Assembly (NCBI GenBank): GCA_900321335.1
Contig: ONVR01000231.1
Location: 1-26,140, forward strand
Reading direction: 5' to 3'
Origin: an uncultured Eubacteriales bacterium
GTDB taxonomy: Bacteria; Bacillota; Clostridia; Oscillospirales; Oscillospiraceae
Length of the DNA: 26,140 bases
The position numbers and the translations under genes were made by a program. How positions within the stretch are numbered: position 1 is the first letter of the stretch; each line of letters opens with the position of its first letter. The notes under the pieces were generated by a model that worked only from the letters and a program-made list of their open reading frames with translations, ran no database searches and was not told where the DNA came from. This document shows, piece by piece, positions 6,817 to 8,943 of this stretch.

Positions 6817-7266
6817 TTATTCCTGGGGAGGATCCTTCTCCTCCGGGTTGGGCTTGCGCTCGGCCACGGCGTCAAACTTGCCGTCCCGGTCGCTGTCCAC
6901 CAGAGCGGTGTCCAGTTCGCCGTCGCCCGTGGTGTCTGTGAGAACGGTGTCGATCTGACCGTCCCCGTCGGTGTCGATGCACACGGTGTCGGCCTTGCCG
7001 TCGCCCGTGGTGTCATAGGCCACGGCTCCGTCGTTTACAGCTGTGGGCTCATTGAATTTCTTTTCGCCGCAGCAGCATTCCTTTTCGTCGATCTCCGTGG
7101 TGCCCTCGCAGCAGTTCTTGCCGGAGACCTCGTCTTCAAAATCCTCCGCCACGGAGCGGAGCTCTTTTTTCATCTGCCCGTAGATCACGGCCGCAACAGC
7201 AGCGGCAGCGGCAACGGCAGCGCCGGCGCCCAGCAGAAGCGCACGGCCGAGAGTGGAATGAAACAT
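6817..7266 (-). CDS. Small membrane-anchored acidic protein with Cys clusters and four DxxxDG calcium-loop-like repeats
   Basis: RBS GGAGG 8 nt before ATG 7266. Ala-rich hydrophobic anchor, CC...CCC, and 13-aa periodic repeats. Confidence 0.7.
   Translation of the reverse strand: MFHSTLGRALLLGAGAAVAAAAAVAAVIYGQMKKELRSVAEDFEDEVSGKNCCEGTTEIDEKECCCGEKKFNEPTAVNDGAVAYDTTGDGKADTVCIDTDGDGQIDTVLTDTTGDGELDTALVDSDRDGKFDAVAERKPNPEEKDPPQE
6859..7014 (-). repeat. Four tandem 39-bp (13-aa) coding repeats
   Basis: DTTGDGKADTVCI / DTDGDGQIDTVLT / DTTGDGELDTALV / DSDRDGKFDAVAE. The DNA word GCCGTCGCCCGTGGTGTC occurs twice. Confidence 0.8.
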
Positions 7267-7303: not shown

Positions 7304-7705
7304 TTACGCCCATTTTTCACAGGTTCCGTCCATGGTGTTGTAGTCGGCGTCCATCTCCTCCAGATAAAACGCCGCGTGAGTCAGGTCGCTGTCGGGACCG
7401 TACTTTTGCTTGAGGAAGGGACTCTGGGCAAACAGAGCCTCCTCCGTTTCCTTGCTCCAGTCAAACACGGCCCTGCCCCGGACCCGGACCCACTCGCCGC
7501 CCTTGCAGGCGCAGATCTCCACGTAGGGATTCTTCTCCGTCTCGGCATAGCTGCGTTTGTGTTTGCCCATGCCGAAATACAGTCTGTCGTTGAGCAGGAA
7601 GATGGCGCCGAAGGGGCGGACGCGGCCTTTGCCCTCGTCGCTGGTGGCGTAGAAGAATACGCCGCAGTCCTTGATGAAATTGTAAATTTTCTCGTTGGCA
7701 GTCAA
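7304..7705 (-). CDS. Pyridoxamine 5'-phosphate oxidase-like (flavin-binding split-barrel) protein
   Basis: Motifs FFYAT..GKGRVRPFG, LYFGMGKHK, KNPYVEIC, WVRVRGRAVF. TTG start at 7705 follows a GAGGTG RBS; the ORF-track GTG at 7714 lies inside that RBS. Confidence 0.8.
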   Translation of the reverse strand: MTANEKIYNFIKDCGVFFYATSDEGKGRVRPFGAIFLLNDRLYFGMGKHKRSYAETEKNPYVEICACKGGEWVRVRGRAVFDWSKETEEALFAQSPFLKQKYGPDSDLTHAAFYLEEMDADYNTMDGTCEKWA

Positions 7706-7733
7706 GGAAATCACCTCATTTTTAGTTTTTCAA

Positions 7734-7761
7734 ATTATAGCAACTTTTCCCGGCTTTTTCA
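7734..7761 (-). promoter_or_regulatory. Candidate sigma-A promoter for the split-barrel / repeat-protein unit
   Basis: Minus strand TTGAAA-16 nt-TATAAT with TG extended -10. Confidence 0.55.
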
Positions 7762-7821
7762 ATACCCGCCGGGGAAAAAGCGTCGACTGACTGTATTTTT
7801 TAAAAACTACCCTGCATCGTA

Positions 7822-7850
7822 TTGACAAGCGCAAAAAACGTGCATATTAT
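7822..7850 (+). promoter_or_regulatory. Near-consensus sigma-A promoter of the holin-endolysin cassette
   Basis: TTGACA (7822-7827), 17 nt, TATTAT (7845-7850). Confidence 0.75.
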
Positions 7851-7933
7851 GAGATTAGAGGTAGACGCGGCCTGAAACCTCTTCGGAATGCGGCGAGGGG
7901 GAAGAAGCGCGAAAGCCTCGGTATACAAAGGAG

Positions 7934-7972
7934 CGGCAAGCTGTGCGTCGTCGGCGCGGCTTGCTGATTTTT
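7934..7972 (+). terminator. Terminator-like hairpin inside the 5' leader of the holin gene (putative attenuator)
   Basis: GCAAGCTGTGC pairs with GCGCGGCTTGC (11 bp, two G-U), followed by TGATTTTT, immediately before the RBS GGAGG (7975-7979). Confidence 0.55.
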
Positions 7973-7985
7973 ATGGAGGGATAAC

Positions 7986-8192
7986 ATGACAAAAGCGTTT
8001 TTCAAAGCGGCCGGGATCCGCGCCCTGCGGACCGTCTGCCAGACGGCGGCGGCCACCATCGGCACGACGGCGCTGCTGCACCAGGTGGATTGGCTGGCAG
8101 TGGCGTCAGCGTCTGTGCTGGCGGGGATCCTGAGCCTGCTCAACAGCGTTGCGACCGGACTGCCGGAGGTGAAAAATGGCAACAGCAAGTGA
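7986..8192 (+). CDS. Phage-type holin (r1t-like family)
   Basis: 68 aa, two hydrophobic segments, signature AAGIRALRTVCQTAAATIG...VDWLAVASASVLAGILSLLNSVATGLPEV. Overlaps the lysin start. Confidence 0.85.
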   Translation: MTKAFFKAAGIRALRTVCQTAAATIGTTALLHQVDWLAVASASVLAGILSLLNSVATGLPEVKNGNSK

Positions 8193-8907
8193 GATCCTGT
8201 CTATCGCCCGTTCCCAGATCGGGTACACGGAGTACCCGCCGGACAGCAACAACACCAAGTACGGCGCGGCTTACGGGATGAACTACAATCCCTGGTGCAT
8301 GATGTTTGTCTGGTGGTGCTTCCGGCAGGCTGGGGCCTCCGGCCTGTTTTACGGCGGCGGCAAGACGGCCTCCTGTCCCACCTTTGAGCGGTGGGCAAAG
8401 GCCCAACGCGGCAGATGGATCACCCGGTCCTTTGCGCCGGGAGATGTGGTCCTTTACGATTTTGACGGCGACGGGGCCGACCACTGCGGTATCGTGGAGT
8501 CGGCAACTGCCGCCACCGTGACGGCCATTGAGGGCAACACCTCGGCCAACGGCTCCCAGGACAACGGGGGCGCCGTGCTGCGCAAGACCAGATCGCTGGA
8601 TCTTGTCGTCGGCGCGTACCGACCGGGATATCAGGCGGCGTCGGCGTCGCCGGGAACAGACAGCGAAAAGGGGGGAGTGTTTCGGGTGGCAACCCTGGAG
8701 ATGATCAGCAAGGGCTCTCAGGGCGCCCAGGTCCGGGCCATGCAGACCCTTCTGATCGGCTACGGCTACAGCTGCGGCGTCTGGGGCGCCGACGGAGACT
8801 GCGGCAGCGGCACCGTGGCGGCGATCAGGAAATACCAGAAAGCTCATGACCTGACGGCAGACGGCATCTGCGGTCCGCTGACCTGGGCGTCCCTCTTGGG
8901 GGCGTAA
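8176..8907 (+). CDS. Endolysin-like cell wall hydrolase: CHAP domain plus C-terminal peptidoglycan-binding domain
   Basis: CHAP catalytic motifs PWCMMFV and DHCGIVE...IEGNT. PG-binding motif KGSQGAQVRAMQTLL...DGDCGSGTVAAIRKYQ...ADGICGPLTW. No signal peptide. Confidence 0.9.
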   Translation: MATASEILSIARSQIGYTEYPPDSNNTKYGAAYGMNYNPWCMMFVWWCFRQAGASGLFYGGGKTASCPTFERWAKAQRGRWITRSFAPGDVVLYDFDGDGADHCGIVESATAATVTAIEGNTSANGSQDNGGAVLRKTRSLDLVVGAYRPGYQAASASPGTDSEKGGVFRVATLEMISKGSQGAQVRAMQTLLIGYGYSCGVWGADGDCGSGTVAAIRKYQKAHDLTADGICGPLTWASLLGA

Positions 8908-8913
8908 AGAGCA

Positions 8914-8943
8914 TTGCGCCCGGAGAGGATTCTCCGGGCGCAA
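8914..8943 (+). terminator. Hairpin after the endolysin gene
   Basis: TTGCGCCCGGAGA-GGAT-TCTCCGGGCGCAA, a perfect 13-bp stem with no clean U-tract on the plus strand. Confidence 0.6.

Follow-up and report, generated by a model that had tools for sequence, protein, structure and literature searches.

We analyzed a 26,140-nt stretch of DNA (hereafter, the window) that constitutes contig C84 of a metagenome-assembled genome (MAG) of an uncultured Oscillospiraceae bacterium (2.09 Mb, 93% complete). The window carries a two-gene lysis cassette on the forward strand, consisting of a 68-amino acid (aa) holin (positions 7986..8192; Phage_r1t_holin, Pfam PF16945, E = 6.8e-13) and a 243-aa peptidoglycan hydrolase with the Pfam domains CHAP and PG_binding_1 (8176..8907; hereafter, the lysin), which overlaps the holin stop. 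The two-gene unit ends in a hairpin (8914..8943, no strand assigned) that was detected as a terminator-like site in a consensus scan, and the genome encodes a single copy of the PF16945-type holin. A PNPOx-like gene (7304-7714, reverse strand) lies upstream in divergent orientation, and the 271-nt intergenic gap between this gene and the holin (7715-7985) contains, in this order, a promoter, a structured stretch, a terminator, a Shine-Dalgarno (SD) sequence, and the holin ATG, with promoter, hairpin, and terminator packed within 170 bp.

The neighbors of the cassette are ordinary chromosomal genes, encoding a PucR regulator, an MFS transporter, URO-D-like and spermidine-synthase-like proteins, tRNA-Pro, tRNA-Ala, and SfsA, and no phage genes were found around the holin locus among the annotated neighbors in the window. 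Mobile elements occur in the bin, with none at the holin locus itself; a 2.7-kb contig (C154, locus L145) carries a phage portal gene, indicating the presence of phage DNA in the bin. Another gene on the reverse strand, ORF149 (6817-7266), encodes a protein with an N-terminal hydrophobic segment and Asp/Gly-rich repeats of the DTDGDG type that belongs to no Pfam family, and is paired with the PNPOx-like gene in a two-gene unit whose conservation extends to distant relatives (L129-L136).

The lysin belongs to a 90% cluster with 29 members, and the identical holin was found on at least 51 contigs. The species of the window is represented by 18 syntenic loci from ruminant gut metagenomes and MAGs, which share the spermidine-synthase-like gene, ORF149, PNPOx, holin, and lysin and have leaders that differ by few single-nucleotide polymorphisms (SNPs); a locus reached via the neighbor genes (P0136) proved to come from the same species. 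A second lineage (L071, L072, L080, and L081; hereafter, L071) corresponds to the Oscillospiraceae MAG GCA_017460685.1 and encodes a lysin with 69% identity to that of the window. In this lineage, the cassette occupies the corresponding place, adjoining the ORF149 ortholog, and the gap is 330 nt long; ORF146 is kept and PNPOx is absent at the corresponding place. Identity at 4-fold sites between the window and L071 is 37-43% for the holin, the lysin, and ORF149, indicating that neutral sites are saturated. Both cassette genes are under purifying selection, with a dN/dS between the window and L071 of ~0.20 for the holin and ~0.11 for the lysin, and with 13-14 synonymous vs 0-1 non-synonymous changes in the holin within the species. 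Some strains of the window's species (L064, L067, and L068; lysin at 1391-2128) encode a 245-aa lysin with two additional residues, the indel being located near window positions 8640-8660.

Architecture and conservation of the leader

A consensus scan identified a sigma-A-type promoter, TTGACA-17-TATTAT (7822..7850, forward strand), with an 11/12 match to the consensus and a predicted transcription start site (TSS) at ~7857-7858; the orthologous promoter of L071 matches the consensus at 12 of 12 positions. Upstream of the -35 element lies a conserved G+C-rich block, CTACCCTGCATCGTA (7807..7821, forward strand), a candidate protein-binding site that is 14/15 identical to its L071 counterpart, occurs only once in the genome, and was not found in 400 genomes of the family. 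The conserved segment extends over the -35 element (CTACCCTGCrTCGTATTGACAAGC) and, together with most of the promoter, is kept between the window's species and L071. Within the species of the window, the promoter spacer is polymorphic. The conserved promoter block could serve as an antiterminator loading site or as an operator. A short dyad flanks the -35 element and the spacer (TGCA...TGCA at 7813-7846 in the window vs TGCG...CGCA at 1916-1949 in L071), with both arms altered together, which might reflect an operator or be a coincidence.

The 140-nt leader has a predicted folding energy of -51.7 kcal/mol (z = -3.2), and only 1 of 200 shuffled sequences was equally stable; for the L071 leader, z = -4.5, and none of 200 shuffles was as stable. 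Minimum free energy and centroid folds agree on a 5'-terminal interrupted hairpin (7858..7919, forward strand). The conserved fold is one long hairpin with three segments, P1, P2, and P3; its distance from the predicted TSS is 0-1 nt in each of the two lineages. In P1, positions 7858-62 pair with 7915-19 (GAGG/CCUC in the window vs GGGG/CCCC in L071); in P2, 7866-69 pair with 7908-11 (CGCG/CGCG vs CAGUA/UACUG); and in P3, 7878-85 pair with 7894-7901 (CCUCUUCG/CGAGGGGG vs CCGUGUCC/GGACACGG). The 8-nt apical loop (7886-93) is GAAUGCGG in the window and AUAUGCGG in L071, with AUGCGG common to both, and its predicted unpaired probability in the window RNA is 0.98-1.0. Neither the size nor the sequence of the internal loops is shared by the window and L071. 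An A/U-rich single-stranded linker with a conserved UAUACnAA motif (7920..7933, forward strand), apparent from the L071 alignment and the folds, connects the hairpin to the terminator.

The letters of the ~60-nt hairpin stretch are rewritten between the two lineages, and the three-segment shape is kept. In P3, both sides changed in 4 of the 8 pairs, yet pairing is 100%, compared with 50-67% in slid controls. The observed value was reached in 37 of 500 shuffling trials, the floor for two distinct sequences being ~1 in 16, so that the covariation statistics are weak with two lineages and the compensatory changes in P3 are suggestive of a shared fold. Within the species, only 1 of the 66 sites in the hairpin region (7855-7920, that is, the hairpin with 3 nt on its 5' side and 1 nt on its 3' side) is polymorphic, compared with 13 of the 68 third positions of the holin (Fisher p = 0.001). 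The sole SNP in the hairpin, A7876C, was found in 9 of 16 loci of the species and is located in an internal loop. Judged by this conservation, the leader element is functional.

An initial, sequence-only reading of this DNA had described a structured leader of ~130 nt with a premature terminator before the holin, and the fold, the terminator scan, and the compensatory changes in L071 all bear this out. The individual helices that it proposed are a different matter: AGAGGT (7857-7862) and ACCTCT (7877-7882), CCTCTTC (7878-7884) opposite GAGGGGG (7895-7901), and CGAGG (7894-7898) and CCTCG (7916-7920) flanking GCGAAAGC are all present, and both the alternative AGAGGT:ACCTCT and CCTCTTC:GAGGGGG pairings and the CGAGG/CCTCG stem around a GAAA loop are possible in the window, but none of these is kept in L071.

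The stem followed by T5 just before the ribosome-binding site (RBS), also noted in that reading, is an intrinsic terminator identified by the consensus scan (7934..7972, forward strand), with a 13-bp stem that includes 8 G-C pairs and a 7-nt loop (7934-7966), followed by A-TTTTT (7967-7972); the SD sequence of the holin, GGAGGG (7975..7980, forward strand), begins 2 nt past the terminator tail. A G+C-rich stem-loop directly before a U tract, the defining feature of intrinsic terminators, is present, and L071 has a 12-bp stem followed by GATTTTT. The terminator arms, GCAAGCTGTG ... CGGCTTG.TGATTTTT, are letter-identical in the window and L071, and the two terminator SNPs within the species, 7955 C>T and 7956 G>A, change U-G to U-A and G-C to G-U, so that pairing is kept. 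We found no antiterminator helix in either lineage: when folded without the 3' arm, the 5' arm finds no conserved partner.

Because the terminator ends 2 nt before the SD sequence and the upstream gene is divergent, transcription of the holin can occur only via terminator read-through, and there is no room for a second promoter between the terminator tail and the SD sequence. For the same reasons, the unit is cis-regulatory, whatever else the short RNA might do, and the purifying selection on the holin and the lysin implies that read-through must occur. We observe the parts of this unit, their order, and their conservation, and a strong promoter and an intrinsic terminator precede the first lysis gene, as in gates of the Q or AlpA type. 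As judged from this architecture, the leader is a real default-off gate on self-lysis genes, in agreement with the suggestion of the sequence-only reading that the lysis genes are held off by default, the efficiency of termination being what we infer. Additionally, the 3' strand of P1 (CCUC in the window and CCCCCGG in L071) is complementary to the SD region (GGAGG and CCGGAGG, respectively). Masking of the SD sequence by this strand is predicted in the read-through RNA of both lineages and could provide a second lock, but the prediction depends on only 4-6 bp and on long-range pairs differing between the lineages.

Distribution of the leader and comparison with known RNA families

Phage-borne homologs of the holin-lysin pair (L010, L014, L069, L070, and L082-84) have other open reading frames (ORFs) upstream and no leader; the gate is thus a feature of the chromosomal copy. 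Among more distant relatives, the chromosome retains a PNPOx-ORF142 operon, with neither the cassette nor the leader. In a BLASTN search of 400 same-family genomes, the leader yielded only short G+C-rich chance matches, two of which were inspected and fall in a coding sequence. A covariance model (R1) built from 6 window-type leaders recovers the L071 leader at 24.6 bits; over 150 family genomes, this model detected only a plain terminator in one genome (G118), and on the BLAST loci, only terminator-like matches. Similarly, the promoter-block pattern with 3 mismatches had no match in 400 family genomes, the exact promoter pattern had 4 chance matches in JGI metagenomes, and the terminator and promoter patterns followed by R1 retrieved nothing from IMG/VR. 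On this evidence, the element seems to be confined to two sister rumen lineages and to have arisen with the chromosomal capture of the cassette.

Two further arrangements were noticed among the relatives. The pair in phage context (L010 1680-1925, reverse strand, and L014 2030-2300, forward strand) follows a small membrane/coiled-coil ORF that looks XhlA-like and is absent from the chromosomal holin-lysin copies. In another genome (G017), a stand-alone r1t-type holin (L011 1680-1860, reverse strand) with a divergent neighbor has a different leader of ~170 nt with hairpins, which may be an independent example of a leader dedicated to a chromosomal holin.

In the sequence-only reading, the leader could not be matched by eye to c-di-AMP, c-di-GMP, T-box, lysine, SAM, or THF leaders, and searches with Rfam 15 agree that it matches no known riboswitch class: at the gathering score, only two tRNAs were found in the window; at E<=10, nothing meaningful was found in 7700-8050; and the scan of the L071 leader was blank, also at E<=10. 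The c-di-GMP-I riboswitch model (RF01051) has three matches genome-wide, with scores of at most 14.8 bits (cut-off 35), none of which is at this locus, and the segment that resembles it, GCGCGAAAGCCUCGG, is absent in L071. Other classes were considered and rejected. ANTAR targets consist of two tandem hairpins with AxxGxx hexaloops, the second of which overlaps the terminator; the leader contains a single long hairpin, whose loop measures 8 nt, and its terminator is not overlapped by another hairpin, and the only ANTAR regulator in the genome adjoins glnA. At that locus (L138, G000:C269, 67-1668), the glutamine synthetase gene precedes that of a receiver-ANTAR response regulator, and the two are probably a nitrogen-control antitermination pair. 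Tandem Repeats Finder returned 0 rows for a type III toxin-antitoxin array. Hairpins with a NNAUGCGG loop, as would be expected of a regulon, are not enriched in the genome (12 matches vs 2-18 for permuted loops), and candidate pseudoknot partners or targets of the loop within the transcript are limited to 5-bp matches, with a G-U pair, at non-homologous positions.

We also searched the genome for proteins that might act on such a leader; because it is 93% complete, a missing factor proves little either way. PF02357 has a single match in the genome, corresponding to one NusG and hence no LoaP paralog. For a CAT_RBD protein of the kind that acts in BglG/LicT-RAT systems, there was no PF03123 match in the genome, and no hairpin in the leader overlaps the terminator. 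A Q-like match is below the Pfam threshold. Two small HTH_17/AlpA-like ORFs are located on mobilizable elements (L143 on C156 and L142 on C139) and have no link to the holin locus; the former adjoins a MobA/VirD2 relaxase, and the latter an HTH_36/LexA-like DNA-binding ORF.

Model for the control of the lysis cassette

Taken together, the conserved features of the leader favor read-through that is either set by a trans factor or constitutively low, and make a small-molecule aptamer an unlikely means of read-through control. With moderate confidence, we interpret the leader as a promoter-proximal terminator gate that controls a domesticated phage lysis cassette, with read-through set by a trans factor; conditional read-through and the existence of such a factor are what we infer from these features. 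According to this model, the near-consensus housekeeping-type promoter would fire and the first ~60 nt of the RNA would fold into the long 5'-terminal hairpin; most polymerases would stop at the terminator 2 nt before the holin RBS, releasing an RNA of ~115 nt, and the holin and the lysin would be made solely from read-through transcripts. Read-through would be governed by a trans factor that modifies RNA polymerase and loads at the promoter in the manner of lambda Q or Pseudomonas AlpA or, alternatively, binds the nascent hairpin, as with N/nut, put, or LoaP targets. A trans factor is favored over a ligand because the shape and the AUGCGG loop are kept and the internal loops are not, no helix competes with the terminator, and conservation of the promoter block and the terminator arms extends to the individual letters. 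The within-species variation in the promoter spacer is at odds with a strict Q- or AlpA-type site located between -35 and -10. It is conceivable, and in our estimation rather improbable, that the AUGCGG hairpin is a new cis RNA element that recruits a host or prophage factor, or itself acts on RNA polymerase, to switch the module on. In a variant of this improbable reading, the ~115-nt RNA might also be an antidote-like regulator of the holin message, via the complementarity of CCUC/CCCCCGG to the SD sequence in both lineages.

Among the known systems, lambda Q releases the PR'-tR' late gate ahead of the lysis genes, and RNA-element-dependent processive antitermination is exemplified by lambda N/nut boxB, HK022 put, leader hairpins bound by LoaP, and EAR. 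In the Pseudomonas chromosomal self-lysis operon alpBCDE, with its promoter PalpB, the terminator tB is located just upstream of the holin gene alpB, and AlpA binds between -35 and -10 and lets the polymerase bypass tB (PMC7969949). In both the lambda and the Alp gates, transcripts from a constitutive promoter thus end shortly before the lysis genes unless a processive antiterminator has been loaded (PMC7547250; PMC7969949). In both the P. aeruginosa Alp system and the locus described here, a prophage-like lysis cassette on the chromosome starts with a holin, an intrinsic terminator lies just before the first lysis gene such that expression needs bypass, and sequence is conserved in the promoter region. 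Unlike Alp, the present locus has no linked regulator of the AlpA type, its promoter spacer is polymorphic, the host is a Gram-positive anaerobe, and a conserved 60-nt hairpin, unneeded in the Alp model, separates the promoter from the terminator. As proposed for our locus, the lambdoid PR'-6S/StxS-tR' gate features a constitutive strong promoter and an abundant short terminated RNA, PR' being always active and terminated immediately downstream (PMC7547250). As in the lambdoid gate, the lysis genes lie directly behind the terminator, and the short RNA may act in trans. However, our locus is not in a phage, there is no Q gene at the Pfam threshold, no -10-like pause element common to the window and L071 is evident, and the phage relatives of the cassette lack the leader. 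The RNA-dependent antitermination systems resemble the leader in having a nascent hairpin with a conserved apical loop before the first terminator and in needing no competing helix, but here there is neither a boxA-like element 5' of the hairpin nor a NusG paralog, and, in contrast to put, there is one long hairpin rather than two stems, with no Rfam match to EAR.

The promoter, non-coding RNA, and terminator that precede a self-toxic protein gene are also reminiscent of type III toxin-antitoxin loci, in which a promoter, antitoxin RNA repeats, and a terminator precede the toxin gene and the terminator sets the RNA-to-protein ratio. However, the leader contains no tandem RNA repeats, and the protein encoded downstream is a holin, not an endoribonuclease. 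Like our locus, riboswitches with terminator platforms have a structured 5' leader and, behind it, an intrinsic terminator ahead of lysis or cell-wall genes, and a c-di-GMP-I riboswitch has reportedly been found in a Clostridioides phage lysis module; the leader described here, however, has no aptamer-like conserved core, no switching helix, and no covariance-model match.

The strongest rival to a gate operated by a trans factor, and in our view an unlikely one, is a constitutive dimmer, in which the terminator passes a fixed small fraction of the transcripts from a very strong promoter, the hairpin only protects the 5' end of the RNA, and any real control is exerted at initiation by a repressor at the promoter block. 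Stem-loops at the 5' end are known to protect RNA from degradation in Firmicutes, and a stabilizer of this kind would need conservation of structure only, with free internal loops, as is indeed seen, in a hairpin located right at the predicted TSS (0-1 nt away) in either lineage. The conserved block upstream of and over the -35 element would suit a repressor, and the lack of a competing helix in either lineage and of an identifiable antiterminator in the 93%-complete genome are in line with a passive leak. Nevertheless, the identical AUGCGG loop, the UAUACnAA linker, and the letter-level conservation of the terminator arms exceed the needs of a stabilizer and a generic terminator, and a 12/12 promoter on a lethal cassette with passive leak alone would seem risky. 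Somewhat less probable still, we believe, is the alternative, also raised in the sequence-only reading, that the unit serves chiefly as the gene of a small RNA (~115 nt) that acts in trans, with holin-lysin expression a by-product of terminator leak. Such a gene would have its own strong promoter and strong terminator ~115 nt apart, a conserved accessible apical loop, and sequence conservation within the species, all of which are found here, and there is a precedent in StxS, which is made by termination at PR' (PMC7547250). However, no target was found, given that complementarity of the loop within the transcript amounts to just 5 bp with G-U at non-homologous positions, the genome shows no enrichment of the hairpin-with-loop motif, and the terminator abuts the SD sequence in both lineages, tying the unit to the cassette. 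A small-RNA role and a cis gate do not exclude each other.

The main idea of the sequence-only reading, a metabolite or second-messenger riboswitch with a terminator expression platform, now appears very unlikely. A structured leader with a terminator ahead of cell-wall-active genes, the significant folding z-scores in both lineages, and the resemblance by eye of GCGCGAAAGCCUCGG to part of c-di-GMP-I speak in its favor, but the leader has neither the conserved pocket nor the switching helix that a riboswitch would require: the internal loops are conserved in neither size nor letters, the A>C polymorphism A7876C occurs in 9 of 16 loci, and no antiterminator helix exists to compete with the terminator. 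Moreover, no Rfam family matches either lineage at E<=10, the c-di-GMP-I model misses the leader and the look-alike segment is absent in L071, and the element was detected in two lineages only among >400 family genomes searched. Ribosome-mediated attenuation, whereby the AUG of the apical loop would start a leader ORF running into the terminator and translating ribosomes would block the terminator hairpin, strikes us as highly improbable. In both lineages, an ORF does extend from the loop AUG into the terminator, that of the window (7888-7989, forward strand) comprising 33 codons and ending in ATGA on the holin start and that of L071 comprising 21 codons and ending in the terminator loop; however, no SD sequence precedes the loop AUG in either lineage, the peptides share Met-Arg only, the stop positions differ, and the estimated probability of ORFs this long arising by chance in both lineages is ~0.15.

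Biological implications

The gating principle of the proposed terminator gate is known from lambda and Pseudomonas Alp, whereas the leader RNA itself is new and unclassified. The reach of the finding is limited to two closely related uncultured rumen lineages. That purifying selection maintains chromosomal holin-lysin pairs outside prophages points to programmed lysis or to holin-assisted export in gut anaerobes. Little is known about how such lethal genes are silenced in Firmicutes, and this locus provides a compact, testable example. If the AUGCGG element did switch the module on, rumen Oscillospiraceae would have a Gram-positive equivalent of the Alp programmed-lysis switch that depends on RNA.
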